This document shows positions 30,086 through 59,861 of a DNA stretch of 64,000 nucleotides, one piece after another (the stretch's first letter is position 1; each line of letters begins with the position of its first letter). The stretch is from assembly GCF_013122565.1 (NCBI RefSeq), contig NZ_CP053258.1, one strand, 5' to 3'. This stretch comes from Escherichia coli. GTDB taxonomy: Bacteria; Pseudomonadota; Gammaproteobacteria; Enterobacterales; Enterobacteriaceae. The position numbers and the translations under genes are program-made. Under the pieces are notes generated by a model that saw only the letters and a list, made by a program, of their open reading frames with translations, was not told where the DNA came from and did not search any database.

Positions 30086-30808
30086 CTAAACGATGCGGCA
30101 GGCGTCGGCTTCCCAGCGGTAACCAACGCCGTAAACGGCGCGGATAAATGACTGTTCGGCGTCGAGAGATTCCAGCTTGCGGCGCAGGTTTTTAATGTGG
30201 CTGTCGATGGTGCGGTCGGTTACTACGCGGTAGTCGTCATAAAGATGATTGAGCAATTGCTCGCGGGAGAACACTTTTCCTGGTTCGTGAGAGAGCGTTT
30301 TCAGCAGACGAAATTCCGCAGGCGTCAGGTCAAGCATTTTACCGCGCCATGAAGCCTGAAAACGACCTTCGTCGATAATCAACGGGCTTTCGGCATCCTG
30401 TTGCTGCAATTCGCGCTGCGGTTTGCAACGGCGCAAAATGGTTTTGACGCGCGCTACGACTTCCCGCGGGCTGTACGGCTTGCAGATATAATCATCTGCG
30501 CCAATTTCCAGCCCGAGCAGGCGGTCGATCTCTTCGATTTTCGCCGTCACCATCACGATCGGAATGTCAGAAAAACGACGAATTTCCCGGCACAGCGTCA
30601 GGCCATCGGTGCCAGGGAGCATCAGATCCAACAGGATCAGATCCGGTGGTGTCTGGCGCACATACGGCAGTACCTGATCGCCGTGGCTGATAAGCGTCGG
30701 CGCATAGCTCGCAGCACGCAGATAATCAATGAGCAACTGTCCCAGCTTCGGTTCATCTTCCACGATCAAAATACGCGGTGTGTTTTCGTCGATTGGTAAC
30801 TCGGTCAT
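30086..30808 (-). CDS. baeR: Response regulator BaeR (OmpR family)
   Basis: 240 aa; receiver domain plus winged-helix; last gene of the mdtABCD-baeSR operon. Confidence 0.95.
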
Positions 30809-32208
30809 ACTTCTCTCTGTAAATCCCGTTCCAGCGGTAACTCTACTGTAATGCTTACCCCGCCAAAAGGCGAATGGGCAGCAATAATGCGGCCATTATG
30901 TGCTACAACAATGTTCAGGCAAATCGCCAGCCCTAGCCCGGAACCGCCGCTGGCGCGGTTGCGGGAACCTTCGGTGCGATAAAAACGTTCAAACAATTTT
31001 TGTAGCTGATCGTCACTGACGCCCGGCGCGCTGTCGGCAAAGGTCAGTCGCACCGTTTTGTCGTGCTGCTCGGCAGAGATTTTCAGGCTGCCGCCGCTGT
31101 CAGTGTAGCGCAGACTGTTTTCAAGTAAGTTATTGAACAGCTGCATTAAACGGTCGCGATCGCCAAATACGGTAATACTGTCTGGCAGGGAAAATTGCAG
31201 TTTCAGGCCACGGCTGGCAAATCGTTCGCGAAATGCGCCGCCCGCCACTTCCAGCAGTGGGATCAAATCTACCGGTGCTTTTTGATAGGCGAGAGCGCCT
31301 TCATCAGACATCGACAACTGATGAAGATCGTCTACCAGTTTGGTCAGTGTACCGACCTCCATCTGTAAAGACGCCACCGTCTCCGGCGTGAATTTGCGCA
31401 CGCCATCCTGAATGGCTTCCAGTTCACCGCGCAGCACCGCTAATGGCGTACGCAGTTCGTGAGAAATATCGGCCATAAAATCGCGCCGCATTTGCTGGTT
31501 TTTCTCCAGCGTGCTGGCGAGCTGGTTGAAGTCTTGCGCCAGTTTGCCCAGTTCATCTTCACTGGTGGGCGTTACGCGGGTAGTGAAATCGCCCGCCGCC
31601 AGTTTGTGCGTGCCATCGACAAGTCGTTTTACCGGTGCCAGCAAACCGCGCGCCAGCAGAAAGGTGGCGAGCGCCGCGAGTAACGTTGCCAGGGCGACAA
31701 TCAGCCAGCTGGTTTGCCGCTGTTGTTTATCGAAATTGATATCAGTATTGCGGGTCAGCCGCTCAACAGGGGAGGCAATCACCGCGCCCACTTCCGCACC
31801 GTTGACCAGAATGGGTCGCCGTGTACCGTCAGGTGGAATCGGCGCTCGCGGACCAACCAGCACCTTGTTGTTTTGATCAACCACCCAGAACTGAGTACGC
31901 CAGCCGTGCGGTGGCATACCCGGGCCGGGTTTATCTTCCGAATTATCGTGTTCAAATGAACGCAGGATCTGAAAGACAAAGCGATCATTGTTGCGCAGGA
32001 AGCGCCAGTTGCCATGCTGCGCATACTGCTCGCCAAGCGCATCACTTAACAGTTGTAATCGCTGTTCATTACCATGCTTGATGTAATCAATAAAGCCACG
32101 CTCAAAACTGATACGCACCGCCCAGTGCATACTGATCAGCAAGACAATGCAGGTGGCGAAAATCGCCAGAAACAGTTTGCCGGTAATACCGGGTCGCCAG
32201 AACTTCAT
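30805..32208 (-). CDS. baeS: Sensor histidine kinase BaeS
   Basis: 467 aa; two TM segments, HAMP, H-box (SHELRTP) and ATPase domain; overlaps the baeR start. Confidence 0.95.
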
Positions 32209-33620
32209 TGCGCGCTCCTTTTTCGCCGCGAAATAGCTACATTTTGATGCGTATCGTTCGGCACTCTGGCAAAGATGAACGCCGGAAGGGCGATGATAAA
32301 CGCCATGCTAAGCCAGGTGTACATAAAGACGGTTTGTGTGGTGCCGCTGTCGACGCTGACATGCTGCGAACCAAAAAGTCCCAGCAACAGCCCGGCGATG
32401 GTGACGCCGATACTCATCGACAATTGCATAATCATCGACAGCAGACTGTTGCCGCTGCTCGCCAGATTGTCCGGGAGATCTTTCAGCGTCAGGGTGTTCA
32501 TGGAGGAGAAACGGGTCGAGTTGACCATCCCTTGTAAAAACAGGACGAACGGCAAAACGTAGTACCAGCCCAACAGAGCGGTAGTCATAAACAACAGGGT
32601 GACCAGCGACAGACCCAGCGTGGTCGCTACCAGTACCCGACGATAACCAAAGCGATTCACCACCTGTACAACAATCCGCTTCATCCCCATGCTGCCAAGC
32701 ACCATCGGGATCATCATCAGTCCGGCATGAAACGGTGAGAAGCCAAGGCCAATTTGCAGGAAAACCGGCGTCATAAAGGGCAACATGCCGCTACCGATAC
32801 GTCCGGCAAAGCTCCCCGCCAGGCCCAGCGAAAAGGTACGAGTGCGGAACAGTTTCAGACTGAAAAGAGCGCGGTTGTTATTTCTGGCGTGCAGCAGATA
32901 AAGCACCAGTGCCACCACGCCAACTGCGACCAGGCCAGCAATCGCCAGCGGCGATAAACCTGTACCTTTACTGCCGTCCAGCGCCAGGGTTAATACCGCC
33001 ATGCCAACCGCCAGCAATAAAAATCCGGAGAGATCAAAGCGCCGCGTCTGCATGGTGTAGTTCGGCATTAACATCAGCGTGGCGATCGCGCCGATAATCC
33101 CCACCGGAATGTTGATCAAAAAGATCCAGTGCCAGGAGGCGTATTCCACCAACAGACCGCCGAGCGCCGGACCGAGCAGCGGCCCGACCTGACCGGGTAA
33201 CGTGACAAAGGTCATCGCCGCCATATATTGCTCGCGCGGTACGATTTTCATCACCGTCAACCTGCCGACCGGCACCATCATCGCACCGCCAACACCCTGT
33301 AACGCACGTGCCAGCAACAGTTCGTTCAGCGTGCCGGAAAGCGCGCAAAACAGTGAACCGAGAGTAAACAGCACGATGGCGGTAAAGAAAATATTGCGCA
33401 CGCCGACTTTGTCCGCCAGCCAGCCGCTGGCGGGCAGCATCACCGCCACGGTCAGCACATAAGAGACAATGACCATGTGCATATGCAACGGACTTTCCCC
33501 GAGGCTTTGCGCCATTGAGGGAAGGGCGGTGTTTACGATGGTGGTGTCCAGCGACTGCATAAAGAAGCCGAAAGCCACAATCCACAATTGCCAGCGGGTG
33601 CTGTCGGGAAGATCTGTCAT
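32205..33620 (-). CDS. mdtD: MFS transporter MdtD
   Basis: 471 aa, polytopic membrane protein, operon position. Confidence 0.95.
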
Positions 33621-36600
33621 TTACTCGGTTACCGTTTGTTTAGGTTTACGCGAAAAACGCAGCCGCAGACGGTCGAAAAAGAGATACACCACCGGCGTGG
33701 TATACAGCGTCAGGAGCTGACTCATCACCAGACCGCCGACAATGGTGATCCCCAAGGGTTGGCGCAGCTCCGAGCCGTCACCGCCCGACAACACCAGCGG
33801 CAGCGCGCCAAACAGCGCCGCCAGGGTAGTCATCATAATCGGGCGAAAACGCAGCAGACAGGCCTGGAAAATAGCTTCCTGCGGCGTCAGGTTACCGTGC
33901 CGTTGGGCTTCAAGCGCAAAATCGACCATCATAATGGCGTTTTTCTTCACGATGCCGATTAATAGCATGATCCCTATCAGGGCGATTAGGCTGAACGGGG
34001 CATTGAACAGCTCCAGCGCCAGCAGCGCTCCAACGCCCGCCGAGGGCAGGGTGGAGAGAATCGTCAGCGGATGTACGTAACTCTCGTAAAGGATACCCAG
34101 CACGATATACACCGTGGCGATGGCGGCGATAATCAGGATCACCTGCGAGTTCATCGTCTCCTGGAACACCTGCGCCGTGCCGGCAAAACTGCCGCGCACC
34201 GTCGAAGGCACGCCAAGCTGGGTCATTGCGCGGTCGATCGCGGCACTGGCGTCCGAGAGCGATTTCCCGGTCGGCAGGTTGAACGAGATGGTCGAGGCCG
34301 CCGATAATCCCTGATGATTCACCGACAGCGGAGCATTCGCCGGTTGCCATTTAGCGAAATACGACAGCGGGATCGCTTTGCCTTCGTTATTGATAACGAA
34401 CATTTTTTCCAGCGCGCTGATGTCCTGGGTATAGCGCGGATCCACTTCCATCACCACTTTATACTGGTTCATCGGCTGGTAAATGGTCGAGATTTGCCGC
34501 TGACCGAAGGCGTTATTTAACAGGCTGTTGGCGGCCTGTACGTCGATTCCCAGCCGTGCCATGGTGTCGCGATCGTAAACCAGATTCATCTCCGCGCCGT
34601 TATCCTGCTGATCGGAGTTCACGTCCGCCAGTTCCGGCAATGTCGCCAGTTTTTTGCGGATTTTCGGCTCCCATTCGCGCAGTGCCGCCAGGTCGTCGGA
34701 TAACAACGTGTACTGGTAGCTGGCGTTCGACTGACGCCCACCAACGCGAATATCCTGTACCGCCATCAGGAACAGATTCGCCCCCGGTTCTTTCGCCAGT
34801 TTTACGCGCAGACGGTCGATAATTTGCTGCGCTGTTTCGCTGCGTTCGTCGCGTGGCTTGAGGGTGATAAACATCATGCCGCTGTTCACTCGCGAACCGC
34901 CGGTAAATCCGGTGACATTATCCACTGCCGGATCGTCACGGATAATTTTCATGAAATCCTGCAATTTGCCGCGCATTGCCTGAAACGAAATACTCTGATC
35001 CGCCTGTATCCCGCCCATCAGCACGCCGGTGTCTTGTTCCGGGAAGAAGGTCTTCGGGATCGAGATATAGAGCCAGATATTCAAAGCAATGGTGCCAAGC
35101 AGCACCACGCCCACCAGACGGGTATGATTGAGCACCCATTTCAGTGACTTACCATAGCCTTGTTGCAGGGCTACCAACATGCGACCAAAACCACGCAGTC
35201 GCTTTTGCTCGCGCGGCTTGCTGGCTTTCAGCATCCAGCCACACATCATTGGCGTTAATGTCAGAGAAACCAGCAACGAAATACCAATGGCGACAGAAAG
35301 CGTCACGGCAAACTCGCGTAACAGTCGGCCCGGCAATCCGCCCATCAACAGCAGCGGCAGGAACACCGCCACCAGTGACAGACTCATCGACAGCACCGTA
35401 AAGCCGACTTCGCGAGTACCTTGTAGCGCGGCCTGTAGTGGTTTCATCCCCGCTTCCAGATGACGGGCAATGTTTTCCAGCACCACGATGGCGTCATCCA
35501 CCACGAAACCAGTAGCGATGGTGAGCGCCATTAACGACAGGTTATTGAGACTGAATCCGCACAGGTACATCGCCGCAAACGTACCAATCAGCGAAACCGG
35601 CACCGCAACGGCGGGAATAATAGTGGCGCGACCCGAGCGCAGGAATAAAAAGACCACCAGAATCACCAGCGCCACCGAGATAATCAGCGTTTGCTCGACT
35701 TCTTCCAGCGAGGCGCGAATGGTGGGGGAGCGATCCTGAGCAATTTGCAGATCAATCGCCGCCGGAATGGTCTCCTGCAACTCCGGTAATTTTGCCCGGA
35801 TGCTGTCTACCGTCTGGATAATATTGGCTTCCGGCAGTTTGCGGATCATCAGCAAAATAGCCGGTTTGGCGTTGGTCATCCCGGCGTTGCGCACATCCTG
35901 CACTGAGTCGGTTACCGTTGCCACATCGCCCAGACGAACCGCACCACCATTGTTGTAGTGAATAATCAGCGGCTGATATTCAGCGGCGGTTTTCAGTTCA
36001 TCGTTGGTCTGGATCTGCCAGCGGTGAATGCCATCTTCCAGCGCCCCCTGTGGTTTACGTACGTTGGCATTGCTGATGGCAGTGCGTACGTCGTCCAGCG
36101 ACACGCCCTGATTAAACAGTGCTTGCGGGTTCAGCCCGACGCGCACCGCAGGCAGCGAGCTGCCGCCGACATCGACATCACCGACGCCGTCGATTTGAGA
36201 AATCGTCGGAGCCAGCTGCGTCGAGGCAAAATCGTACAGTTCACCTTGCGAATAAGTATCGGACGTCAGCGTGAGGATCATAATTGGCGCATCCGACGGG
36301 TTCGCTTTGCGATAGGTCGGACGGCTGGGCATCCCGCTGGGCAGCAAACTTTGTGCAGCGTTGATCGCCGCCTGCACATCGCGCGCTGCGCCGTTGATAT
36401 CGCGGTCAAAATCAAACTGCAAAATAATGCGCGTGCTGCCGAGCGAACTGCTGGAGGTCATTTCACTGACCCCGGCAATGCGCCCAAGTGATCGCTCCAG
36501 CGGCGTGGCAACGGAAGACGCCATTGTTTCTGGTGACGCACCGGGCAGCGAGGCGCTGACCATAATCACTGGAAAATCGACCTGCGGCAGCGGGGCGACC

Positions 36601-36698
36601 GGCAGCATACGGAAACCCAGTATGCCGCACAGGGTAATGGCGACCGACAGTAAAATCGTTGCCACCGGGCGGTAAATGAAGAGGGCAAAAAACTTCAC
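33621..36698 (-). CDS. mdtC: RND multidrug efflux pump subunit MdtC
   Basis: 1025 aa RND transporter; same length as K-12 MdtC. Confidence 0.95.
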
Positions 36699-39600
36699 TT
36701 ACGCCTCCTCTTCATGACGGGCAAAGCGACTTTTGGTCCACAATGCCAGGCGGTCGAACAGCAGATAAATCACCGGCGTGGTGAACAGCGTCAGCACCTG
36801 GCTGACAATCAGACCGCCGACCATGCCGATACCTAACGGACGACGCAGTTCCGCGCCGACCCCGGTACTCAACATCAGCGGCAGCGCGCCAAGCAGAGCC
36901 GCCAGGGTGGTCATCAGGATCGGACGAAAACGCAACAGACAAGCCTGGTAGATTGCATCGCGCGGCGACATGCCTTGCTCGCGCTCAGCAGCCAGCGCGA
37001 AGTCGATCATCATGATGGCGTTCTTCTTCACGATACCGATCAGCAAAATAATGCCGATAATCGCAATCACATCCAGTTCGCTACCGGCAATCATTAACGC
37101 CAGCAGTGCGCCAACACCTGCCGTGGGTAGCGTCGAGAGAATGGTGATCGGGTGAATAAAGCTCTCGTACAGAATGCCGAGCACGATATACATCGCCACC
37201 ACCGCCGCGACAATCAGCCAGACGGTGCTGCCCAGCGCCGACTGGAAGGCGAGGGTGCTGCCCTGGAACTGCGTGGTGATATCCACCGGCAGATTCAGAG
37301 TCTTTTCGGTGTCCATAATCGCCTGCACCGCATCGCCCAGCGAATAGTTATCCGGCACGTTAAAGGAGATGGTCGTTACCGGGAACTGATCCAGATGGTT
37401 GATGGAAAGCGGCGCAAAACGCTGCTCAATTTTGGCAATTGAGCTTAACGGCACCACGCCACCGTCGCTGCTGGTCAGGCGAATGGTATCCAGCGCCGCG
37501 AGGCCTGGGGTATTTTCGGTGTTGTGCTCCAGCACCACGCGATACTGGTTAGCCTGAGTATAAATAGTGGAAATCAGCCGCTGACCAAACGCGTTGTACA
37601 GGGCGTTATCGACGTCCGCCATGCTGATCCCCAGACGGCTGGCGCTGTCGCGATCAACATTGACATACGCCACCAGCCCTTTGTCCTGCCAGTCGCTGGA
37701 GACATCAGATAGCTGTGGCAGCTGCTGGAGTTTTTCCATCAACTGTGGCACCCAGGTACTGAGCGCATCCAGTGACGTGGCCTGCAAGGTAAACTGGTAC
37801 TGGGTGCGGCTGACCTGAGTATCGATGGTCAGGTCCTGCGTTGGTTGCAGGAAGAGATCGACGCCCGGCACTTTATCCACCGCCGTTTGCAGACGGGCGA
37901 TGACTTTTTGCACCCGATCATCACGTTCATCCAGCGGTTTGAGGTTGATCTGCAAACGCGCACTGTTCAGCGACGGGTTAGTGCCATCAACGCCAACAAA
38001 TGAGGTCAGACTTTGCACTGCCGGATCCTGCAAAATCACGTCCGCGACCTGGCGTTGCCGCTGGGCCATATTGGCAAAGGAGCTGGATTGCGGTGCCTGC
38101 AAAGTGCCCTGAATAATGCCGTTATCCTGTACCGGGAAGAAACCTTTCGGAATGAACACCCACAATAGAACGCTAAGCAGCAGCGTGCTGAGCGCCACGC
38201 TTAAGGTCAGCCACGGATGATTCAGCACTTTCGCAAGTCCCTGACCATAGGCGGCGATTATCCTGTCGAACATTTTTTCCGAGGCACGGGAGAAGCGGTT
38301 CTGTTTACGCAGTGACTCCTGGCTGAGCATCCGCGCGCACATCATCGGTGTCAGGGTCAGCGACACCACGGCTGAGATCAAAATCGCTACCGCCAGGGTA
38401 ATAGCAAATTCGCGGAACAGTCGCCCGACGATATCGCCCATAAACAGCAGTGGGATCAACACCGCAATCAGCGAGAAGGTCAGCGAGATAATGGTAAAGC
38501 CGATTTCACCCGCGCCTTTGAGCGCCGCCGCCAACGGTTTTTCGCCTTTTTCGATATAGCGGGAAATGTTTTCGATCACCACGATGGCGTCATCGACCAC
38601 AAATCCGGTGGCGATAGTTAACGCCATCAGCGTCAGGTTATTGATTGAAAAATCGAGAAACACCATGACCGCGAAGGTGCCGATTAACGACAGCGGCACT
38701 GCGACGCCGGGAATGATGGTCGCCGGAATATTGCGCAAAAACAGGTAGATAATCATGACTACCAGCGCGATAGCCATCATCAATTCAAACTGAGTATCAT
38801 CGACGGATGCGCGGATATTGGTGGTACGGTCAGAAAGTACCGTCACCTTCACCGATTTCGGCAGACTCTCGGTGAGCTGTGGCAGCATCTGCCGGATGCT
38901 GTCGGCGGTGGAGATAATGTTAGCACCGGGCTGGCGCTGAACATTCATCACAATGGCCTGTTCTTTGTTCGCCCATGCGCCGAGCCAGCTGTTTTCTGCA
39001 CCTTGCTCTACGGTTGCGACATCGCCCAGACGAATCGGCGCGCCGTTCTGGTAGGCGATGATTAGCTGGCGATACTCTTCGGCGGATTGCATCTGGTCGT
39101 TAGCGGAAAGCGTAACCGCACGGGAAGGGCCGTCAAGGCTACCTTTAGCCGAGTTAACGTTAGCGCCGGTAATGGCGGTGCGCACGGTTTCGCTGGTCAG
39201 GCCGAGGGCGGCAATCGCCTGAGCGTTAAGTTTGACGCGAACAGCCGGACGCTGGCCGCCGGAAAGCGTCACCAGACCGACGCCGGAAATCTGCGAGATT
39301 TTCTGCGCGACGCGGGTTTCCACCATATCTTCCACTTGCGTCATCGGCATGGCTGTTGAGGTGACGGCGAGCGTCATGATCGGCGGATCTGCCGGGTTCA
39401 CTTTGCTGTAAACCGGCGGGTTAGGCAGATCGCTCGGCAACAAGTTGGTCGCAGCGTTAATCGCGGCCTGTACTTCCTGCTCGGCGACATCCAGCGGTAA
39501 TGTTAGCTGGAACTGCAAAGTGATAACTGACGCACCGCCGGAACTTTGCGACGACATCTGTTTCAGACCAGACATCTGCCCGAACTGGCGTTCGAGCGGC

Positions 39601-39821
39601 GCGGTAACGGCAGAGGTCATGACATCCGGGCTCGCACCTGGGTAGAGCGTGACCACCTGAATGGTCGGATAGTCCACTTCCGGCAGCGCCGAAACGGGCA
39701 GGGCGCGATAACCGATAATCCCGGCGAGTAAGATCGCCACCATCAGCAGCGTGGTGGCCACAGGACGCATAATAAACAGGCGCGACGGGCCGCCTGTGCT
39801 GCTCGGGGGTAACACCTGCAT
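36699..39821 (-). CDS. mdtB: RND multidrug efflux pump subunit MdtB
   Basis: 1040 aa RND transporter; same length as K-12 MdtB. Confidence 0.95.
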
Positions 39822-41068
39822 CAGGAGCGTGCTCCTTTTTTCGCGTATTCGCGGCTGGTGGCTTTCTCTTCCGAAGTGGTGGCGCTCTGGGCTTCCACCA
39901 CTTCCACTTTCGCCCCTTCGGTCAGGCGATCAATGCCGTCTGTCACCACGCGATCGCCCGCAGAAATACCTGCGCGGATCACCACTTTCTGACTGTCCTG
40001 AATGCCCGGCGTCACCAGATGTTTGCTGACCTTGTTTTCGCTATTCAGCACCCAGACAAAATGGCCTTCATTGCCCATTTGCAGGGCGGCTGTTGGGATC
40101 ACCACGGCGTTTTGTTCGGTGTCGACTAACATACGCGCGTTAACAAACTGATTGGGAAACAGCGCATCATCCTGATTATTAAAGCGTGCTTTCACTTTAA
40201 TCGTACCGGTAGTGGCATCGATTTGGTTATCGAGACTTAACAGCGTGCCTTCACTTAATTTCTTCGAGTTGGTGCGATCCCAGGCTTCTACCACCAGCGG
40301 TTTTCCGGTTTTTTGCGCCTGCACAACGGTAGCGATATCGCTTTCCGGCAGGGTAAAGACTAAATCGATAGGATGCGTCTGGGTGATCACCACAATCCCG
40401 GAGGTATCACCACTGGAGATTTGGTTACCAACATCAACCTGCTTGAGACCAACGCGACCATCGACTGGTGCGGTGATGCGGCTCCAGTCGAGTTGCAGCT
40501 GTGCGCTGGCGACGCTTGCTTCATCAGCCTTAATGGTGCCTTCGGTTTCACTGACCAGCGCCTGTTGGGCATCCAGTTCCTGACGAGATACGAGATTGGT
40601 TTTTGCCAGTTGTTGATAACGCGCCAGGTCACGGCGGGCGTTGGCGAGCGTGGCTTTATCTTTTGCCAGTTGGCCCTGGGCTTGTGCTAATGCAACTTTG
40701 AACTGGCTTGGGTCAATTTCTGCCAGTAAATCGCCTGCTTTGACCTGCTGGCCTTCCTGGAAATGTAACGCCATCAGTTGACCGTCCACGCGGCTGCGCA
40801 CCGTAACAGTATTAGCGGCGGTAATGGTGCCAAGCCCGGTGAGGTAACGCGGAACAGCCTGTTCTACTGCGGTCGCCGCCTGAACCGGAGCTAATGGGCC
40901 GGCACGCATACCACGGCGACCACCCGCTGGCGATTGCTGCGCTTGTTTCGTCGCCCCAGGGGCTGCACTCTGGGAGTCATTGCGGCCTTGCCAGAACCAG
41001 AATGCGGCGATGGCGGCGATAACCACCACGATTACGATTACCCAACGGGATTTATAACTGCCTTTCAT
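39821..41068 (-). CDS. mdtA: Membrane fusion (periplasmic adaptor) protein MdtA
   Basis: Start [16 protein letters not shown] gives 415 aa as in K-12; the longer track ORF (to 41215) is an upstream extension. Confidence 0.9.
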
Positions 41069-41121
41069 CGTTAAGAGTTTCTCTTCCTGAAACGTTTCGC
41101 GGAATGATACTAGTGTAGCCA

Positions 41122-41139
41122 GCCAATAAGGGAGAAAAA
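41122..41139 (-). promoter_or_regulatory. Candidate BaeR box in the mdtA promoter
   Basis: Minus-strand TTTTTCTCCCTTATTGGC, about 55-70 bp upstream of the mdtA start; matches the BaeR consensus TTTTTCTCCATDATTGGC from memory. Confidence 0.5.
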
Positions 41140-41284
41140 TGGAGGAATTATGAAACACTATCGGGAATCGTCTGAATGGCGGGCACATTTGCGAGCACGC
41201 ATCCAGTAATAACACAGGAAACTATTTTATCTACGCGTTAGCGATAGACTGCTTGCATGGCGAAAGGAGGTAAGCCGACGATTT

Positions 41285-41425
41285 CAGCGGGACGCTGAAA
41301 CGGGAAAGCCCCTATAAGGAAAGGGTCATGATGAAGTGGATCATCATCGTGGTGCTCTTAGTCATAAGCTTCCCGGCTTACTAAGACTACCAGGGCGGGG
41401 GAAACCCCGCTCTACCCTCACTCCT
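41285..41425 (-). ncRNA. Sib antisense RNA (antitoxin) opposite ibs copy 1; ends approximate
   Basis: In K-12 each ibs ORF lies wholly inside a ~140-nt antisense Sib RNA (established knowledge); the extent here is estimated and no promoter or terminator was mapped. Confidence 0.3.
41328..41384 (+). CDS. Ibs-family type I toxin peptide (MMKWIIIVVLLVISFPAY)
   Basis: 18-codon hydrophobic ORF with GGAAAGGG RBS-like sequence upstream; Ibs family signature MMK...ILV...ISFPAY. Confidence 0.75.
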   Translation: MMKWIIIVVLLVISFPAY

Positions 41426-41611
41426 GAAATTATGCCTTCACGATAAGATTGTCAATCCGCAGGCTTTGTAGTCTGCGATCCTGCCAGCAAATATTCTTTG
41501 CGAGTCGTTACGCAATAATCACACTGGAAACTATTTTATCCGCAAGTCAGCGATAGACTGCATACAGGGCGAAAGGAGGTAAGCCGACGATTTCAGCGGG
41601 ACGCTGAAACG

Positions 41612-41752
41612 GGAAAGCCCCTCCCGAGGAAGGGGCCTTAAATAAGGAAAGGGTCATGATGAAGATACTCATCATCGTGGTGCTCTTAGTGATTAGCTAC
41701 CCAGCATACTAAGACTACCAGGGCGGGGGAAACCCCGCTCTACCCTCACTCC
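41612..41752 (-). ncRNA. Sib antisense RNA opposite ibs copy 2; ends approximate
   Basis: As for copy 1. Confidence 0.3.
41656..41712 (+). CDS. Ibs-family type I toxin peptide (MMKILIIVVLLVISYPAY)
   Basis: Second repeat copy, same frame and context as the first. Confidence 0.75.
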   Translation: MMKILIIVVLLVISYPAY

Positions 41753-41941
41753 TGAAATTATGCCTTCACGATAAGATTGTCAATCCGCAGGCTTTGTAGT
41801 CTGCGATCCTGCCAGCAAATATTCTTTGCGAGTCGTTACGCAATAATCACAGAGGAAACTATTTTGTTCACGCGTTAGCGATAGACTGCATTCAGGGCGA
41901 AAGGAGGTAAGCCGACGATTTCAGCGGGATGCTGAAACGGG

Positions 41942-42085
41942 AAACCCTCTCCCGGAGAAGAGGGCTTTTAATAAGGAAAGGGTTATGATGAAGCACGTCA
42001 TCATACTGGTGATACTCTTAGTGATTAGCTTCCAGGCTTACTAAGAACACCAGGGGGAGGGGGAAACCTCTCCCTAACCCTCACT
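41942..42085 (-). ncRNA. Sib antisense RNA opposite ibs copy 3; ends approximate
   Basis: As for copy 1. Confidence 0.3.
41985..42044 (+). CDS. Ibs-family type I toxin peptide (MMKHVIILVILLVISFQAY)
   Basis: Third repeat copy; 19 codons; closest of the three to K-12 IbsA from memory. Confidence 0.75.
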   Translation: MMKHVIILVILLVISFQAY

Positions 42086-42264
42086 CCTGAAATTATGTCA
42101 CTCCGCCCTTAGTGTCAATCGACGGCTCTCCGTTCTTGCGAGGCGAATAGCAAAATTTTCTGCGCCGCCGGGCCTAATTCTGAAAGTTTCTTCGTTTGCT
42201 CTTATTTCATTATTGCAATCGGTATGATACCGGACCTCGATAATTCTCTAAGAAAGGATTTCTT

Positions 42265-48745: not shown

Positions 48746-51700
48746 TCAGTTAATCGCGAAATAACTACTATTCACCAGCAAATCCAGCGGTTGGGCACCG
48801 GCAATCACATCACCATAAATCAGATCGAGGCCGATGCCAGAAAGCGTATCCATCACTAAGGGTAAAACGACTGGCCCGGCGATGGTTTTCATCCCGAGTC
48901 GCTGAGCGTGCCCCTGAATAATCGTAATCAGCATCTCATCCATCAAATTACCCTGCACGTTGGCGCATAACTCACCATCAAGTAGCAGGTAATCTGCCAT
49001 ATTCGCTTTCAGCGAGTTGAAGATTTGCAGATCGCGGCCCACCTGGCTGAGCACTATCCGACATCCCGCCAGCCGCAGTTTTTGCACGCTTTCTGCGTGA
49101 TCTAAAATCGCTTCAGCCGGAATAATCAGATGTAATAACCGTGGTGGTAGAGGGCTATTTTCCAGCTGCTCAAGCAGATCATTCACCAGCGTGGCGCTAC
49201 TCAAACCGGCAACGGAAAGGGGGAGGGCGATGCTTATGCCTTTACTGGCAACCGCTTTTGCGGCCTGCTGGAAAAATTCGTGGAATACCCGGCGGTCAAG
49301 AGCATGGCTAAGCGCCGGATCGCTGAAGCTACGACGAAATGTTTGTTCATCAATAATCTCGCCTTCGCAACTCCAGAGCTTAAGTGAAATCAGCCACAAA
49401 TTACGCGCTTCCGGGATCCGTGGCGAAGCGACACCGTGGGCGAGCATCATCAACTGATTCTCTTTAATCATCCGCCACTGTTCATCAAGCGACATCGCCG
49501 CCCGTTCGCTATGTGCGGCAGCTTGCTGCGGTTCGTACATCGTCACCCGGCCCCGGCCACCATTTTTGGAGGCATAACAGGCGATATCAGCCTGCGACAT
49601 CACTTCTGCCGCCTGATGATTGTTGTCATCAATCAAGGTAATCCCGGCACTGGCACCTACCCGATGCACACGGCCTTCCCATATAAAGTGATAGTCATTC
49701 ACGGCACTGATAATGCGTGTAGCGATAAAACGCGCGCTTTCAACATTACAGTCTGGCAGCAGCAGACCAAATTCATCACCACCGAGTCGCGCCAGCACGT
49801 CGCTGGAGCGCAGCATACTCAGCATCAACGACGCCAGTTCTCGCAGCAAAGCGTCGCCCGCCGCATGCCCGGCGCTGTCATTCACCGCTTTAAAGCGATC
49901 AAGATCGATAAACACCAGGGCATGTCGCTGATGTGTACTGTTTACCGTTTGCAGCAGGATACGCAGTTGCTTCTCAAAACTGGCGCGATTGGCGAGATGC
50001 GTCAGTGCATCATGGGAGGCGCTGTAGCTCAGCTGGCGCAGCATTTTGCGTGATTCGGTAACGTCCTGAATCACCAGTACCGAGCCTATATTGCTGCCGT
50101 CCAGAGTACTTAACGGCGTAATACTGTAATGCACGTCGTAGCTACCGCCGCTCCGGCAGTGCAACACCACATCTTGTTCAATCGCGGAACGTGAGGTGTC
50201 GGCACTGTAAATGTTCTCCATTAATGGTCCGTTGTCGCCAAAAGTAATATGCAACACCGTCAGGAGCGGAACACCTAATGCTTCTTCCTGCGTCCAGCCG
50301 CTCATCTTCTCCGCCACTGGATTCATAAAGGTAATTTTCATCGCCATATCAATACAGACCACGGCTTCACCGATGGAGTCCAGCGTAATGTGCAGGCGTT
50401 CTTTTTCCTGAAACAATGCCTCGTTAAGCTGTTTAACTTCGGTCATATCCATATTAATGCCGAGCAGGCGTTCGACTTCGCCTTCTTTATTCAATACCCG
50501 GTTGGCGAGGGCGCGGATATGGCGAATACCGTCTTTCACGGTAATGCGAAATTCCAGTTTAAAGGGCGAGCGTGATTGCAACGAATCACGAATTACTTTT
50601 TCGGCATGCTGGCGATCTTCCGGCAGCACACACTCGTACCACACCTGCCAGTTCGGTTTGATATGCGGAGGAATTTCATACAGCTCGAACATCCGCTTAT
50701 CCCAACTGAAAATATCCGGCTTCAGCTCCCATTCCCAGATACCAATCCCGCCCGCTTCGTTAGCCAGCGTGATGCGCTCCATCAGTTGCTGATTGACCTG
50801 TTCGGTGCGTTTTAGTTCGTTAATGTCTTCAATCTGAGCGATAAAATAGAGCGGCGTGCCATCCGTGTGGCGCACCAGTGAGACGGCAAGCAACGCCCAG
50901 ACAACATCGCCATTGCGGTTGTAGTAACGTTTTTCCATTGAATAGGTGTTTATTTCACCGCTTATCAGCTTTTCAACCTGTTGGAGATCTTTATTGAGAT
51001 CCTCCGGCCAGGTCAGTTGCTGAAAGGTGAGTCCGCGCAGCTCTTCCTGACTGTAACCGAGAAACTGGCAGAGTGCTTTGTTGGATTGCAGCCATTGTCC
51101 CTCGGTGCCCACTAACGCCATGCCGATAGCGGAATATTCCATCGCGTTCCGAAAGCGGGTTTCGCTTTCGGAAATGTGTTTGCGTTCCGCACGAAAGGCA
51201 TACATCACCATGGTCATGATGTTGGCGGGCAGCAGGATCAGCAAAAACGGTAGCCACGGCATATGGCTCATTAGGTATGTACGCGGCGTAGCAAGCAGGG
51301 AGGGATCCGCGGCCATCATCAGCGACACCATCATCACCGTGGTAAGGAAGATCAAAAAGGCTTCCATTCGTGGCAGGCGCACGGCGCTCCACATCAACAG
51401 CACAATAATGAAAGTAAAAGGCCACGGCAGATACAGCATCGAAAGCCAGCTTAACGTCAGTGTGATGGCTAACGTGAGCAGCGACTCAAAAAGCAACCTT
51501 GGGTTGCGATGGCGCAGCAGATAGTGTGGTTTAAATAACAATCCCAGCGGCACCAGTGCCAGAGCGCCGATGGATTCTGACAGTACCCATATCAAAAATG
51601 CCCTGAGAGGATCGTCTCCGGGCGTCAGCAGGACAACCAGAACACCCCCCAACAGAGGCGGAACAATGGCGCTGCCGAGTGCCAGACGCAGCCAGTCAGC

Positions 51701-52063
51701 CAGATTTTGCAAGGGGTTATACCACGGCAGCAATTTACGTAGTAGCACTGCCCCGACCACGGCTTCAACAATATTGATGGTCGTCCAGGTCATGTTCAGC
51801 GAGCTGGTGGAAAAAAGCAGGATGGATGCGGCGATATTTCCCAGCGAACAGCTCAGCGCAATTCCCGGCCACATGCGCCCGGCATGGCGATAAAACGCCA
51901 CCATCATGATGGACGTCGGGAACCACAGTGGGGCGAGTTGGGTGCCAAACTGCGAAAGCTCAAGCGAGAAAAGGGTGAAGATAAACGAGACTAAACCTAA
52001 ACTGACCAGGTGAAGCAGCGGGTGGGGCAGGGCAATTAATACATGCTGTGATTGTTTGCTCAT
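48746..52063 (-). CDS. dgcE: Diguanylate cyclase/phosphodiesterase DgcE (MASE1-PAS-GGDEF-EAL)
   Basis: 1105 aa; N-terminal multi-TM domain; GGDEF motif present; C-terminal degenerate EAL-like region; same length as K-12 DgcE (YegE). Confidence 0.9.
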   Translation of the reverse strand: MSKQSQHVLIALPHPLLHLVSLGLVSFIFTLFSLELSQFGTQLAPLWFPTSIMMVAFYRHAGRMWPGIALSCSLGNIAASILLFSTSSLNMTWTTINIVEAVVGAVLLRKLLPWYNPLQNLADWLRLALGSAIVPPLLGGVLVVLLTPGDDPLRAFLIWVLSESIGALALVPLGLLFKPHYLLRHRNPRLLFESLLTLAITLTLSWLSMLYLPWPFTFIIVLLMWSAVRLPRMEAFLIFLTTVMMVSLMMAADPSLLATPRTYLMSHMPWLPFLLILLPANIMTMVMYAFRAERKHISESETRFRNAMEYSAIGMALVGTEGQWLQSNKALCQFLGYSQEELRGLTFQQLTWPEDLNKDLQQVEKLISGEINTYSMEKRYYNRNGDVVWALLAVSLVRHTDGTPLYFIAQIEDINELKRTEQVNQQLMERITLANEAGGIGIWEWELKPDIFSWDKRMFELYEIPPHIKPNWQVWYECVLPEDRQHAEKVIRDSLQSRSPFKLEFRITVKDGIRHIRALANRVLNKEGEVERLLGINMDMTEVKQLNEALFQEKERLHITLDSIGEAVVCIDMAMKITFMNPVAEKMSGWTQEEALGVPLLTVLHITFGDNGPLMENIYSADTSRSAIEQDVVLHCRSGGSYDVHYSITPLSTLDGSNIGSVLVIQDVTESRKMLRQLSYSASHDALTHLANRASFEKQLRILLQTVNSTHQRHALVFIDLDRFKAVNDSAGHAAGDALLRELASLMLSMLRSSDVLARLGGDEFGLLLPDCNVESARFIATRIISAVNDYHFIWEGRVHRVGASAGITLIDDNNHQAAEVMSQADIACYASKNGGRGRVTMYEPQQAAAHSERAAMSLDEQWRMIKENQLMMLAHGVASPRIPEARNLWLISLKLWSCEGEIIDEQTFRRSFSDPALSHALDRRVFHEFFQQAAKAVASKGISIALPLSVAGLSSATLVNDLLEQLENSPLPPRLLHLIIPAEAILDHAESVQKLRLAGCRIVLSQVGRDLQIFNSLKANMADYLLLDGELCANVQGNLMDEMLITIIQGHAQRLGMKTIAGPVVLPLVMDTLSGIGLDLIYGDVIAGAQPLDLLVNSSYFAIN

Positions 52064-52380
52064 TACCGCTTTATCCGCAAGACCTGGTCGCCAGTATTCG
52101 TTTCTGTGTTTATGCTAGTACAAAAGTTTTACATTTTATATGCGAATTGCTCATAAAGTGACGTAAAGGCGGATAATTTGCGCAACTGCGTATAACATTT
52201 TTTACCTTGTATAAAACTGATCAACGTAATTTGCCACCGGGAATTCTTCGTCAACAATTAACTCTGAGCGCGCGGCAACGCTATTCGACTGGTATCAGGC
52301 GGATGAAATCCCTATAATTGCCGCGTTTGGCGCTTCGTCGCCCCCTTCCTAACATCCAGGTTAATCAGGTCGCTAAATAT

Positions 52381-53022
52381 ATGACTGATCAGTCTCATCA
52401 GTGCGTCATTATCGGTATCGCTGGCGCATCGGCTTCCGGCAAGAGTCTTATTGCCAGTACCCTTTATCGTGAATTACGTGAGCAAGTCGGTGATGAACAC
52501 ATCGGCGTAATTCCCGAAGACTGCTATTACAAAGATCAAAGCCATCTGTCGATGGAAGAACGCGTTAAGACCAACTACGACCATCCCAGCGCGATGGATC
52601 ACAGTCTGCTGCTTGAGCATTTACAAGCGTTGAAACGCGGCTCGGCAATTGACCTGCCGGTTTACAGCTATGTTGAACATACGCGTATGAAAGAAACGGT
52701 GACGGTTGAGCCGAAGAAGGTCATCATTCTCGAAGGCATTTTGTTGCTGACGGATGCGCGTTTGCGTGACGAACTTAACTTCTCCATTTTCGTTGATACC
52801 CCGCTGGATATCTGCCTGATGCGCCGCATCAAGCGTGACGTTAACGAGCGTGGGCGTTCAATGGATTCAGTGATGGCGCAATATCAAAAAACCGTGCGCC
52901 CGATGTTCCTGCAATTCATTGAGCCTTCTAAACAATATGCGGACATTATCGTGCCGCGCGGCGGGAAAAACCGCATCGCGATCGATATATTGAAAGCGAA
53001 AATAAGTCAGTTCTTTGAATAA
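52381..53022 (+). CDS. udk: Uridine/cytidine kinase
   Basis: Start [22 protein letters not shown] gives 213 aa as in K-12; P-loop present; the track ORF extends to 52318. Confidence 0.9.
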
Positions 53023-53113
53023 GCTTGATAAATTGTGTACCGTTCAGTGATAACCTGGTATGCCCTTGACGTAATTGGCGTTAAGGGAGTGATGCGCGAA
53101 AGGAGAAAATGCC

Positions 53114-53695
53114 ATGCGTCTGTGTGACCGAGATATTGAAGCCTGGCTTGATGAAGGCCGTTTGTCGATCAACCCACGTCCGCCAGTGGAGCGTATTAAC
53201 GGCGCGACGGTGGATGTACGCCTGGGCAATAAATTTCGTACCTTCCGTGGTCACACGGCAGCGTTTATCGATCTGAGCGGTCCCAAAGATGAAGTGAGCG
53301 CCGCGCTTGACCGCGTGATGAGCGATGAGATCGTTCTCGACGAGGGCGAGGCGTTCTATCTTCACCCAGGAGAGCTGGCGCTGGCGGTGACGCTGGAGTC
53401 GGTGACGCTGCCAGCCGATCTGGTGGGCTGGCTGGACGGGCGTTCCTCACTGGCGCGTCTGGGGCTGATGGTGCACGTCACCGCGCACCGCATCGATCCG
53501 GGCTGGTCTGGCTGCATTGTGCTGGAGTTCTACAACTCCGGTAAGCTGCCGCTGGCGCTACGTCCGGGCATGTTAATTGGTGCGCTGAGCTTTGAGCCGC
53601 TTTCCGGTCCGGCGGCGCGACCTTACAACCGCCGTGAAGATGCGAAATATCGCAACCAGCAGGGCGCGGTAGCCAGCCGAATCGATAAAGACTAA
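53114..53695 (+). CDS. dcd: dCTP deaminase
   Basis: 193 aa; begins [17 protein letters not shown]; udk-dcd synteny. Confidence 0.95.
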
Positions 53696-53716
53696 TTCAG
53701 GCCCATTGAGGATACC

Positions 53717-55570
53717 ATGAGACGATTTCTGACGACGCTGATGATACTCCTGGTCGTGCTGGTGGCCGGGTTATCTGCGTTAGTGTTGCTGGTGAATCCG
53801 AATGATTTCCGCGACTATATGGTCAAGCAAGTTGCTGCACGTAGCGGTTATCAATTGCAGCTCGACGGGCCACTGCGTTGGCACGTCTGGCCGCAACTTA
53901 GTATCCTCTCCGGGCGAATGTCTCTCACCGCCCAGGGCGCGAGCCAGCCACTGGTTCGCGCCGACAACATGCGTCTGGACGTGGCGCTTTTACCACTACT
54001 GAGTCATCAACTGAGCGTTAAGCAGGTGATGCTAAAAGGGGCAGTGATCCAACTGACGCCGCAGACGGAAGCGGTGCGCAGTGAAGACGCTCCGGTTGCA
54101 CCACGCGACAATACCTTGCCGGATCTGTCAGACGATCGCGGATGGTCGTTTGATATATCCAGTCTTAAGGTGGCGGACAGCGTTCTGGTGTTCCAGCATG
54201 AAGATGACGAGCAGGTGACAATCCGCAATATCCGCCTGCAAATGGAACAAGATCCCCAACATCGTGGCTCATTTGAGTTCTCCGGGCGGGTTAATCGCGA
54301 TCAGCGCGATCTCACGATATCCCTTAACGGTACGGTAGATGCTTCTGATTATCCGCATGATTTAACGGCGGCTATTGAACAAATTAACTGGCAGTTGCAG
54401 GGTGCCGATTTACCAAAACAAGGTATTCAGGGGCAAGGGAGTTTCCAGGCCCAGTGGCAGGAGTCACATAAACGCCTTTCATTTAACCAAATCAGCTTGA
54501 CCGCCAATGACAGTACGCTGAGCGGGCAAGCACAGGTCACGCTGACAGAGAAGCCGGAATGGCAGCTGAGACTGCAATTCCCGCAACTGAATCTTGACAA
54601 CCTCATCCCGCTTAATGAAACCGCGAATGGTGAAAACGGTGCCGCGCAGCAGGGGCAGAGCCAATCAACGTTGCCGCGCCCGGTTATTTCTTCGCGTATT
54701 GATGAACCGGCCTATCAGGGACTGCAAGGCTTTACGGCTGATATTTTGTTGCAAGCCAGTAACGTGCGCTGGCGCGGAATGAATTTTACAGATGTTGCCA
54801 CGCAAATGACCAACAAGTCGGGTTTGCTGGAAATTACTCAACTGCAGGGCAAGCTTAACGGTGGACAGGTTTCACTGCCGGGCACGCTGGACGCGACATC
54901 AATAAATCCGCGGATAAACTTCCAGCCACGGCTGGAAAACGTTGAGATTGGTACCATACTGAAGGCGTTTAACTATCCGATTTCGTTGACCGGAAAGATG
55001 TCACTGGCTGGTGATTTCTCCGGTGCTGACATAGATGCTGACGCATTCCGCCATAACTGGCAAGGACAGGCACATGTCGAAATGGCCGATACGCGCATGG
55101 AAGGGATGAACTTCCAGCAGATGATTCAGCAAGCGGTAGAACGTAATGGTGGTGATGTGAAGGCCGCTGAAAACTTCGATAACGTGACGCGTCTTGACCG
55201 CTTTACCACCGATTTGACGTTGAAGGATGGCATCGTGACGTTAAACGACATGCAAGGTCAATCGCCTGTGCTGGCGTTGACAGGGGAAGGCATATTGAAT
55301 CTGGCAGATCAAACCTGCGACACCCAGTTTGATATTCGGGTCGTGGGTGGCTGGAACGGGGAAAGTAAACTGATTGATTTCCTGAAAGAAACGCCAGTAC
55401 CGCTGCGGGTTTATGGCAACTGGCAGCAACTCAATTACAGTCTGCAAGTGGATCAGTTACTGCGCAAACATCTACAGGACGAAGCGAAACGTCGTCTGAA
55501 TGACTGGGCCGAGCGGAATAAAGATTCCCGCAATGGCAAAGATGTGAAGAAGTTGCTGGAGAAGATGTAG
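53717..55570 (+). CDS. asmA: Outer membrane assembly protein AsmA
   Basis: 617 aa with N-terminal TM anchor; same length and position as K-12 AsmA. Confidence 0.9.
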   Translation: MRRFLTTLMILLVVLVAGLSALVLLVNPNDFRDYMVKQVAARSGYQLQLDGPLRWHVWPQLSILSGRMSLTAQGASQPLVRADNMRLDVALLPLLSHQLSVKQVMLKGAVIQLTPQTEAVRSEDAPVAPRDNTLPDLSDDRGWSFDISSLKVADSVLVFQHEDDEQVTIRNIRLQMEQDPQHRGSFEFSGRVNRDQRDLTISLNGTVDASDYPHDLTAAIEQINWQLQGADLPKQGIQGQGSFQAQWQESHKRLSFNQISLTANDSTLSGQAQVTLTEKPEWQLRLQFPQLNLDNLIPLNETANGENGAAQQGQSQSTLPRPVISSRIDEPAYQGLQGFTADILLQASNVRWRGMNFTDVATQMTNKSGLLEITQLQGKLNGGQVSLPGTLDATSINPRINFQPRLENVEIGTILKAFNYPISLTGKMSLAGDFSGADIDADAFRHNWQGQAHVEMADTRMEGMNFQQMIQQAVERNGGDVKAAENFDNVTRLDRFTTDLTLKDGIVTLNDMQGQSPVLALTGEGILNLADQTCDTQFDIRVVGGWNGESKLIDFLKETPVPLRVYGNWQQLNYSLQVDQLLRKHLQDEAKRRLNDWAERNKDSRNGKDVKKLLEKM

Positions 55571-55590
55571 GTTACCAGGTGATCTGTCCT

Positions 55591-55628
55591 GTAGGCCTGA
55601 TAAGACGCGTAAAGCGTCGCATCAGGCA
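55591..55628. repeat. REP (repetitive extragenic palindrome) element
   Basis: GTAGGCCTGATAAGACGCGTAAAGCGTCGCATCAGGCA, the canonical E. coli REP form, just after the asmA stop. Confidence 0.7.
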
Positions 55629-55986
55629 ATCACGTAGATTACTTTCAGCAAAGATGAATCATCAGTAAAAGCAAGATATTTCCGCGAGGGGGTTGGTCCG
55701 GCTGTAAATCGCCGAATCGTTTCCTGTAGGCCGGGGCAGCCCACATGGATGTGGGCTGAGGGCGCGTTTTACAGGGATGTTACCTCGCGCCCGTACCCGA
55801 TAGCCGAAAGGAATAAGATGAGGGAACCGCGCTAGCGGCGATTTACCGCCGGGAGCCCGGGTTGCCAGGGTGGTGGCGATTGAGCCACCCTGGCACGTTC
55901 ACCGACTTGAGCGTTCCATAGTAGCGAGGAACATAAAGTGAACGGAACAGCCTTCAATGTCACATACTCTCCCGGTTGAACGAAAC

Positions 55987-56023
55987 GCCTGATGCGACGC
56001 TTTACGCGTCTTATCAGGCCTAC
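55987..56023. repeat. REP element, inverted relative to the one at 55591
   Basis: GCCTGATGCGACGCTTTACGCGTCTTATCAGGCCTAC, immediately before the yegH stop. Confidence 0.7.
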
Positions 56024-56029
56024 ATGCCA

Positions 56030-57613
56030 TCACACCTCGTACTCCATCTCGCCATCCTTACGCAGCGGAATAATTTGCACCTTCTGCACGCGATGGCTTT
56101 CCACCTGCAACGTTTTAAGCAAATAATCCCCCACCTGAACTTCTTCGCCAGGTTTTGGAATACGCTGTAAATATTCCATCAACAGCCCGGCAATGGTGTG
56201 ATATTCACGTTTTTCATCCAGCGGCAGCGGCACATATTGCACCAGATCTTCCAGCGGCATATGACCATTCGCCGTCCAGGAACCGTCCGCATTCTTCTGA
56301 ATATCATGGCGGGCGTCGATCTCTTCCACTTCGTTCGGTAAGTTACCGGCAATGGTTTCAGTGACGTCACTTAATGTCACAATCCCTTCCACCGAGCCAA
56401 ACTCATCCACCACAAAAGCAAAGTGTGTGCGGGCATTACGGAACTGCTCCAGGGCAGGTAACAACGGCAAGGTTTCCGGGAACACCAGCGGCTGGCGAAT
56501 CAACACCCGCAGGTTGAGCGGTTCGCCGCGCAGAGACTGTTGTAGCAGGTCGATAACGTGAACAACACCGAGCAAATCTTCTGCGTCATCACCGTCGGTA
56601 ACCACCAGCCGCGTATGCTGATTTCGCTCCAGCAACTGGCGGATCTCGTCTTCCGGCGCGTTGAGATCGATATGCTCAATATCGTGGCGCGACGTCATAA
56701 TGCTGCTGACGGTACGCTGGTTAAGATTAAGTACCCGCTCAATCATCCGCCGTTCCTGCGGATTAAAGATCTGCTGGTTACCATGATCCACCAGCATGGA
56801 CGCGGTTTCGGCGTCCAGTTCCGCATCCTCTTTTTGCCCGCTAAGCAGGCGCATTACCGCTTCGGTAGTCCGCTGGCGCAGCGTCTGGTTAGCGGAAAGA
56901 AAACGTCGCCGGTTAAAGATAGCCAACTGATTGAGCGCCTCGATCATCACCGAGAAACCAATGGCAGCATACAGGTAGCCTTTCGGAATGACGAAGCCGA
57001 AACCTTCTGCCACCAGGCTAAAGCCAATCATCAACAGGAAGCTTAAGCAGAGAATAACGATTGTCGGGTGACTGTTAACAAATTGCGTTAACGGCTTGCT
57101 GGCCATCAACATCAGGCTGATAGCGATAACCACGGCGGCCATCATGACCACTAAATGGTCGACCATCCCGACGGCGGTAATCACTGAGTCGAGTGAGAAG
57201 ATGGCGTCCAGTACCACAATTTGTGTCACCACCCCCCAGAACTTCGCACCTTTGCGTTGTGTGGGATTATTGCTGTCTTTCCCTTCCAGCCGTTCGTTCA
57301 GCTCCATCGTGGCTTTGAACAACAGGAAGAAACCACCAAACAGCATGATTAAGTCGCGGGCGCTAAAGGTAAACGAGCGGAAGCTGAACAGCGGTTGAGT
57401 CAGGGTGACCAGCCAGGAGATTGACGCCAGCAGTAACAGGCGCATTAACATCGCCAGCAGCAGCCCGGTAACCCGTGCGCGGTCGCGCTGCTTCGGCGGT
57501 AGTTTTTCGGCGAGGATGGCAATAAAGACCAGGTTATCAATGCCGAGGACCAGTTCGATCACAATCAGCGTGATTAACCCGGCCCAGATAGACGGATCGG
57601 CAATCCATTCCAT
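56030..57613 (-). CDS. yegH: TerC/CBS/CorC-domain inner membrane protein YegH
   Basis: Start [13 protein letters not shown] gives 527 aa as in K-12; multi-TM N-terminus; the track ORF extends to 57679. Confidence 0.9.
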
Positions 57614-58080
57614 AGTAAGTACAAAACCTATTCGTTGTATGACAAATGTCACAATTCGATCATGGATAAATCGGGGCAAAAATGCAATGTTGCAGCACTA
57701 TTTATCTCATATTATTTGAGGGTAATAACCTCACATTATCCCTGAATTAAAAGTGGTAATAATAAACATTATTTAAGAAATATCGCATGTGGAGACGCAA
57801 TATTAAATATTGTCAACCTAAAGAAACTCCTAAAAACCATATTGAATGACACTTAATATAATTCTTAAAAATAGCCAATTGCCGAATTGTTACCTTGCCT
57901 GCTATTCCGTTAGCTGTAACACTTCCTCCTGCATTATTGGAGAGCCAATATTCAATTACCATAATGTCACCTTATATTCGGAAGTTAATTTCCGCAATAA
58001 CCCTTTCTCATCAACGATTGTATGCAGAGAGGGTTTGAAAAATTAAGCTAAATCAGTGTATTGGTAGCTAAAAAGCCAGG

Positions 58081-58092
58081 GGCGGTAGCGTG
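58081..58092 (+). promoter_or_regulatory. ops / JUMPstart element upstream of the colanic acid (wza) operon
   Basis: GGCGGTAGCGTG, the ops consensus, about 180 bp upstream of the wza start in the untranslated leader. Confidence 0.6.
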
Positions 58093-58270
58093 TCTGGATG
58101 CCTGAAAGACCAGTCTGAATTATTCTGTCAATAGCCTGCGGATGAAATCAATTTTTTTAGGACTGATGCCAGTTAAATTTTTATTCAATTAACTGCAAGG
58201 TAAATGTGCATGGCGACATTGCTATTAATAGTGCACAGGATAATTACTCTGCCAAAGTGATAAATAAACA

Positions 58271-59410: not shown

Positions 59411-59415
59411 TCGTC

Positions 59416-59859: not shown

Positions 59860-59861
59860 GA

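Follow-up and report, generated by a model that had tools for sequence, protein, structure and literature searches.

The 18-mer TTTTTCTCCCTTATTGGC, located at positions 41122-41139 on the minus (mdtA) strand of the window (the whole 64-kb stretch of Escherichia coli DNA analysed here), is very probably the operator through which BaeR is known to control the mdtABCD-baeSR promoter. Our analysis re-identifies a published regulatory site and adds nothing new on this genome. The only refinement concerns conservation: the box itself shows little of it beyond Escherichia and Citrobacter, in contrast to an invariant adjoining block centred on CTCCAT.

In the circuit to which the site belongs, signals of envelope stress such as indole, copper, zinc, and tannins activate the kinase BaeS, which phosphorylates BaeR, a regulator of the OmpR/PhoB family. 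BaeR then occupies this T- and C-rich site, just 5' of a good predicted -10 element (TATCAT) that lacks a -35 element, and recruits RNA polymerase. The transcript ends with baeS and baeR themselves, so that the loop is one of positive autoregulation. Activation of mdtABCD-baeSR by BaeS, via BaeR and from this region, is supported by published work together with sequence identity to E. coli K-12.

Sequence and position of the BaeR box

The start codon of mdtA occupies positions 41068-41066 (minus strand), which places the 18-mer at -71 to -54 relative to the ATG, the same distance as in K-12. The box lies in the promoter of a BaeR-activated gene, on the strand of that gene, and agrees with the published BaeR consensus TTTTTCTCCATDATTGGC at 17/18 positions, the exception being position 10 (C in the box, A in the consensus). 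The original prediction had described a near-consensus BaeR box on the mdtA strand, at the expected distance upstream of mdtA, and had cited the consensus. Match, strand, and distance are borne out, and the cited consensus is correct as quoted from Nishino et al. 2005 in three papers (PMC3799227; PMC3915751; PMC11644481).

The window contains a single exact occurrence of TTTTTCTCCCTTATTGGC. When one mismatch to TTTTTCTCCATDATTGGC is allowed, this occurrence remains the only match, and none of 100 dinucleotide-preserving shuffles yields any; when up to three mismatches are allowed, there is still only one match in the window, with 0.19 expected. A chance resemblance without function could point to the 19 of 100 shuffled windows that give some match at three or fewer mismatches, but it is effectively refuted by the empty result at the single mismatch observed and by the setting of the box, since promoter and strand are both the expected ones and the sequence is that of a site bound in K-12 by ChIP-exo; we regard this explanation as vanishingly improbable. 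Three E. coli promoters, those of mdtA, spy, and acrD, supplied the consensus; because mdtA is one of them, its match is partly circular. The 17/18 agreement at mdtA amounts to identity with a known site, not to an independent prediction.

The mdtABCD-baeSR operon

The first gene of the operon, mdtA (39821-41068, minus strand), encodes a protein of 415 aa that scores 723.6 bits against the NCBIfam MdtA/MuxA equivalog (cut-off 391), and matching E. coli genomes likewise annotate the gene as mdtA. The remaining genes, from mdtB to baeR, span positions 30086-39821 on the same strand. They comprise mdtB (36699-39821), mdtC (33621-36698), and mdtD (32205-33620), each assigned from the list of open reading frames and the annotation of matching genomes, followed by baeS (30805-32208) and baeR (30086-30808), which exceed the cut-offs of their NCBIfam equivalogs (928.7 bits against 603 and 450.5 bits against 380, respectively). 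The operon mdtA-mdtB-mdtC-mdtD-baeS-baeR is intact, lies on one strand, and has K-12 lengths, and the window encodes the cognate regulator along with its kinase. Because BaeR, BaeS, and MdtA exceed the equivalog cut-offs and the operon is intact, autoregulation is structurally possible. The autoregulated control of mdtABCD-baeSR that the original prediction had proposed is supported by the K-12-identical promoter, by ChIP-exo, and by the intact operon with baeS and baeR in last place.

A longer mdtA beginning at a GTG codon at 41215 (464 aa), in which the box would be coding sequence, was considered and rejected. The NCBIfam alignment begins at residue 4 of the 415-aa form, and the extension (41069-41215) is also marked as non-coding by a 1-nt deletion in the 5' leader of E. 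albertii and of Escherichia sp. MOD1. Judged by these comparisons, the true mdtA start is the ATG at 41068, giving the 415-aa product.

Identity with the K-12 site and probable occupancy by BaeR

The mdtA promoter matches that of E. coli K-12 MG1655 base for base between 41156 and the ATG, and it is for this reason that the site can be equated with the mdtA BaeR box of the literature. Between about 41270 and the mdtA start, there are three differences from MG1655 (41172, 41162, and 41158), all of them 5' of the box, the K-12 counterpart of which is 2153945-2153962. Among 5426 complete E. coli genomes, 5416 carry the 81-bp stretch around the box with at least 95% identity, and strains such as O157:H7 match it at 100%. 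For coding regions of the window (38000-41068 and 50000-60000), the best identity among the 5426 complete E. coli genomes is 98.5-98.9%.

The original prediction had called for comparison with mapped BaeR sites, which the BaeR ChIP-exo data of Choudhary et al. 2020 for K-12 (PMC7657598, Data Set S2) make possible. In this data set, peak_5 (2153931-2153967, signal-to-noise 11) encloses the sequence identical to the box, an overlap that is transferred from K-12 and lacks base-pair precision. Projected onto the window, peak_5 corresponds to 41153-41117 and reaches 14 bp upstream of the 18-mer and only 5 bp downstream of it. The adjacent peak_6 (2153972-2153998, signal-to-noise 15; PMC7657598, Data Set S2) corresponds to 41112-41086, over the predicted -10 element and start region, and these two peaks are the strongest on the BaeR sheet. 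The limit on precision follows from spy, at which the ChIP-exo peaks (1825677-1825711 and 1825823-1825843) flank rather than cover the 18-mer (1825764-1825781). Overlap at mdtA should, therefore, be read as placing the box 'inside the BaeR-crosslinked zone' and not as base-pair mapping. Additionally, mdtA is named as a direct BaeR target in the BaeR regulon literature, including a review according to which BaeR binds the Salmonella mdtA promoter (PMC8308502).

A proposed tandem-repeat operator

The window sequence TTTCATAATTCCTCCATTTTTCTCCCTTATTGGC contains three direct YTYCMT hexamers, which a hexamer scan places on the minus strand as R1 (TTTCAT, 41155-41150), R2 (CTCCAT, 41144-41139), and R3 (CTCCCT, 41134-41129). 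R1 and R2 are spaced by 11 bp and R2 and R3 by 10 bp (offsets 20, 31, and 41). This triple pattern is unique in the window, in which 0.04 occurrences are expected and single hexamers have a frequency of 0.004 per base. The promoter contains at least two direct half-sites 10-11 bp apart, the arrangement sought for an operator of the OmpR/PhoB type; operators of this family are usually tandem direct repeats at helical spacing.

From this arrangement, we infer that the real operator is an OmpR/PhoB-type tandem-repeat site larger than the 18-mer, of which the 18-mer would be the promoter-proximal part. We propose R1-R2-R3 (41129-41155, minus strand) as the full BaeR operator. The published box (41122-41139), identified by consensus match, K-12 identity, and ChIP-exo, would consist of the promoter-proximal repeat R3 plus ATTGGC (41127-41122, minus strand) and is probably only part of the operator. 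The upstream skew of peak_5 (14 versus 5 bp) fits occupancy of R2 as well as of R3. BaeR would bind the phased hexamers head-to-tail, with its promoter-proximal subunit lying over the missing -35 element and R3 standing in the -35 position. R1-R2 would be the ancestral core, to which R3 plus ATTGGC would add strength in Escherichia and Citrobacter specifically.

Conservation across Enterobacteriaceae

For 80 mdtA loci of Enterobacteriaceae (one genome per species), the 115 nt upstream of the ATG were aligned; 79 of these promoters are distinct. The alignment reveals an invariant block, TTTCATAWTTCCTCCATTTTT / TTTCATAATTCCTCCATTTTT (41135-41155, minus strand), that contains R1, R2, and a T-run. 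Every position of this block except A 41148, which is often T elsewhere, is common to at least 90% of the 79 promoters. R1 reads TTTCAT or TTCCAT in 68 of them, and R2 reads CTCCAT in 74 and CTTCAT in the other 5.

The box itself fares differently. Its T-run (TTTTT, at the 5' end) is the only part conserved family-wide, whereas the core CTCC...ATTGGC is kept in Escherichia and Citrobacter only, and 13 of the 18 positions are not conserved beyond these two genera. Conservation in orthologous promoters, which is not formally a defining feature of such a site, was thus not found for the box. The 16-nt spacer that separates the R1-R2 block from the -10 block, and that holds the box core, is unconserved, with 47 variants among the 79 promoters; in Klebsiella or Enterobacter, the counterpart of E. 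coli 41134-41119 is, for instance, GCGGGGCGTTTGGTCA.

These patterns bear on the main rival reading, possible but in our judgement doubtful, in which BaeR recognizes the mdtA promoter mainly through R1-R2 (41155-41139), and the 18-mer is an Escherichia/Citrobacter third repeat that tunes the strength of the site and is dispensable. It would account for the near-constancy of CTCCAT at R2 as against CTCC at the R3 register, which occurs in 19 of the 79 promoters, all from Escherichia or Citrobacter. It would also fit the way in which the other 60 promoters match TTTTTCTCCATDATTGGC: at the E. coli register, the median is 10/18 (range 7-13), compared with 12/18 (range 11-13) one helical turn upstream, at the R2 register centred on CTCCAT. 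Further points in its favour are that mdtA is BaeS-dependent in Klebsiella pneumoniae (PMC13059784), a species whose promoter lies outside the aligned set, and that Citrobacter sp. Awk 4 combines a spy box of 17/18 with an mdtA 18-mer register of 12/18. Finally, the CTNCA element common to BaeR sites, according to Guerrero and colleagues, is present in R2, while R3 has CTCCC instead.

Against this reading stand the other BaeR-activated promoters of E. coli. The K-12 boxes of spy (TTTTTCTCCATAATTGGC) and acrD (TTTTTCTCCACGATTGGC) carry, as mdtA does, the core TTTTTCTCC-N3-ATTGGC, which is identical at its 15 specified positions in three unlinked promoters and varies in the central triplet (CTT at mdtA, ATA at spy, and ACG at acrD). 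Because a 15-position core match is far beyond chance, the 18-mer register itself would be recognized in E. coli. Moreover, ATTGGC at spy is conserved in three genera: in a spy promoter comparison that took in Salmonella and Citrobacter (the protein search for orthologues gave mostly Salmonella), the box is kept in both, including ATTGGC, as TTTTTCT(C/T)CA(T/C)AATTGGC. We take the 18-mer to be probably part of what BaeR recognizes in E. coli and offer only tentatively the suggestion that the ancestral, essential mdtA operator across Enterobacteriaceae might be TT(T/C)CAT-N5-CTCCAT (41155-41139), with the 18-mer as a lineage-acquired third repeat. If this suggestion is true, TTTTTCTCCATDATTGGC describes a lineage-specific strong site and not the minimal element, and scans in other lineages would miss or mis-register BaeR sites.

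The distinction has modest practical value. The 18-mer consensus is routinely used for BaeR target searches in other Enterobacterales, and mdtA itself fails it in most genera (7-13/18). Given the nearly invariant CTCCAT-centred block 10 bp upstream, a half-site model is predicted to serve better than the 18-mer for the regulons of Klebsiella, Enterobacter, and similar genera.

The three E. coli targets also differ in layout. The acrD box lies 14 bp upstream of a candidate -10 element (TACAGT), compared with 12 bp to TATCAT at mdtA, and the spy box is located about 156 nt from the ATG, far 5' of the spy core promoter. A second CTCCAT at spy is 22 bp away, unlike the spacing of 10 at mdtA. The upstream spy ChIP-exo peak (1825823-1825843) covers CATAATCTCTGCAAAATCATC, including the TCTNCANAA element of Yamamoto 2008, and a TTCATAAT stretch within the sequence of this peak resembles mdtA R1. 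R1, TTTCATAATTCC, is also closely resembled by the BaeR-bound Salmonella sodA site, GGTTGCTTCATGATTCCC; like the shared CTNCA element and the near-invariance of the R1-R2 block, this resemblance speaks for the larger, half-site-based operator.

One entry in the alignment deserves a separate remark. The mdtA promoter of a MAG deposited as 'uncultured Raoultella sp.' (L012; CAAEVH010000004.1) equals that of Citrobacter braakii (L013), unlike the promoters of true Raoultella (L025, L038, and L040); to judge from this promoter, the bin is probably mislabelled.

Predicted core promoter and transcription start

The invariant block CTACACTAGTATCATT (41103-41118, minus strand) contains the predicted -10 element TATCAT (41109-41104), which is indicated by conservation and by ChIP-exo peak_6. 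This -10 block, CTAAACTAGTATCATT, is identical in 59 of the 79 promoters and one base off in most others. A gap of 12 bp separates the box from TATCAT, and the hexamer found at a 17-bp spacing on the 5' side of TATCAT, CCCTTA, is not -35-like; a scan with the sigma-70 consensus found no pair at TATCAT. On this basis, a transcription start is predicted near 41097 (plus or minus 3), which would give a leader of about 29 nt; the 18-mer would then span roughly -42 to -25, and R1-R2 roughly -58 to -42.

Two other assignments of promoter elements were considered. The sole match of the sigma-70 scan, TTCAGA-18-CATAAT (41176-41147), is located further upstream, partly within the conserved block, and would set a start inside that block; it is unlikely to be the regulated promoter, as the invariant TATCAT block and ChIP-exo peak_6 are both located downstream of it. 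The hexamer TTGGCT within the box is not a plausible -35 element, as the spacers would be too short (11 bp to TATCAT and 13 bp to the acrD TACAGT).

A published transcription start upstream of the motif would tell against the original prediction. The only start assigned to mdtA by Kim et al. 2012 (PMC3415461, supplementary file 2) is NC_000913.2 2151394, which implies a 646-nt leader and was obtained from uninduced cells. This position falls inside the sibA gene (2151335-2151478, NC_000913.2), and we rejected it as the mdtA promoter on account of both its location in the SibA RNA gene and the uninduced state of the cells; most likely, it is a Sib-related 5' end mis-assigned to mdtA. The sole listed start, 646 nt upstream, thus probably belongs to SibA and is neutral with respect to the mdtA promoter.

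Conservation continues downstream of the -10 element. The -10 block, CTA(A/C)ACTAGTATCATT (16 nt), and a leader motif, GTTTCAGGA-GAGA, are near-invariant over about 40 genera (41081-41118, minus strand), and the leader GAGA lies 13-16 nt from the mdtA ATG. The extent of this conservation exceeds the need of a -10 hexamer or a Shine-Dalgarno sequence and suggests an extra constraint, for example an RNA element or a second factor.

Upstream neighbourhood

The conservation profile of the 79 promoters delimits a second conserved block, TTCAGACGATTCCCGATAGTG (41156-41177, minus strand), directly upstream of R1. K-12 and most genera have TTCAGACGATTCCAGACAGTG (CAGAC-N5-CAGAC) at this place. In the window, the second copy reads CCCGATAG, and its T 41158 occurs in none of the other 78 distinct promoters; the CCCGATAG allele is, nevertheless, common in E. 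coli, with more than 3000 genomes at least 99% identical over 41085-41165. The block may be a site for CpxR, for another regulator, or for further BaeR binding.

CpxR sites have been reported in the mdtABCD promoter (PMC5063474). Together with this CAGAC-repeat block and with the T-run, which could be a UP-like or bent element, they give some footing to the view that the conserved sequence serves mainly another factor, for instance CpxR or a nucleoid protein, or functions as a T-tract, either core-promoter or UP-like, and that BaeR dependence is indirect. By direct reading, however, 41122-41155 contains no GTAAA-N5-GTAAA CpxR motif, the strongest BaeR ChIP-exo peaks fall here (signal-to-noise 11 and 15), and the box core is shared specifically with other BaeR targets. 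We consider an indirect effect of this kind highly unlikely and direct binding of BaeR the better account of the site.

The upstream limit of the mdtA promoter region is set by the nearest Sib RNA/ibs toxin-antitoxin repeat (41313-41455, minus strand; Rfam SIB_RNA, 140.9 bits against a gathering score of 56), which is co-directional with mdtA. Three such repeats stand in tandem between yegL and mdtA (41313-42118, minus strand), at 41313-41455, 41641-41783, and 41970-42118. The unit recurs about every 328 bp, and the K-12 counterpart contains two copies (sibA/ibsA and sibB/ibsB).

Comparison with known systems

In the pho-box promoters activated by PhoB, a tandem-repeat operator takes the place of the -35 element, and a good -10 element follows about one helical turn downstream. 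The predicted mdtA operator would substitute for the -35 element in the same manner, a likeness to class II-like activation by the OmpR/PhoB family, although the half-site sequence of PhoB differs from that of BaeR. PhoB makes a demonstrated contact with sigma-70 region 4; for BaeR, to our knowledge, no such contact is on record.

A closer likeness in sequence is found in the DzrR box of the Dickeya and Burkholderia desAB promoters, which belongs to the direct-repeat operators of the AdeR-like subgroup; there, too, a regulator of the OmpR/PhoB family activates an RND efflux operon. DzrR, a related regulator, footprints on two CTCCAT repeats 11 bp apart (PMC10052836), and both R2-R3 and R1-R2 of mdtA look like these direct repeats. 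DzrR is, however, a different regulator, reported to be independent of BaeR and of phosphorylation (PMC10052836), so the likeness backs the half-site idea by analogy only.

The nearest known system remains the mdtA BaeR box of E. coli K-12, with which the box in the window shares its sequence, its distance from the ATG, and the operon downstream. From the K-12 mdtA region, the window differs by the three point differences further upstream and by the third Sib/ibs repeat.
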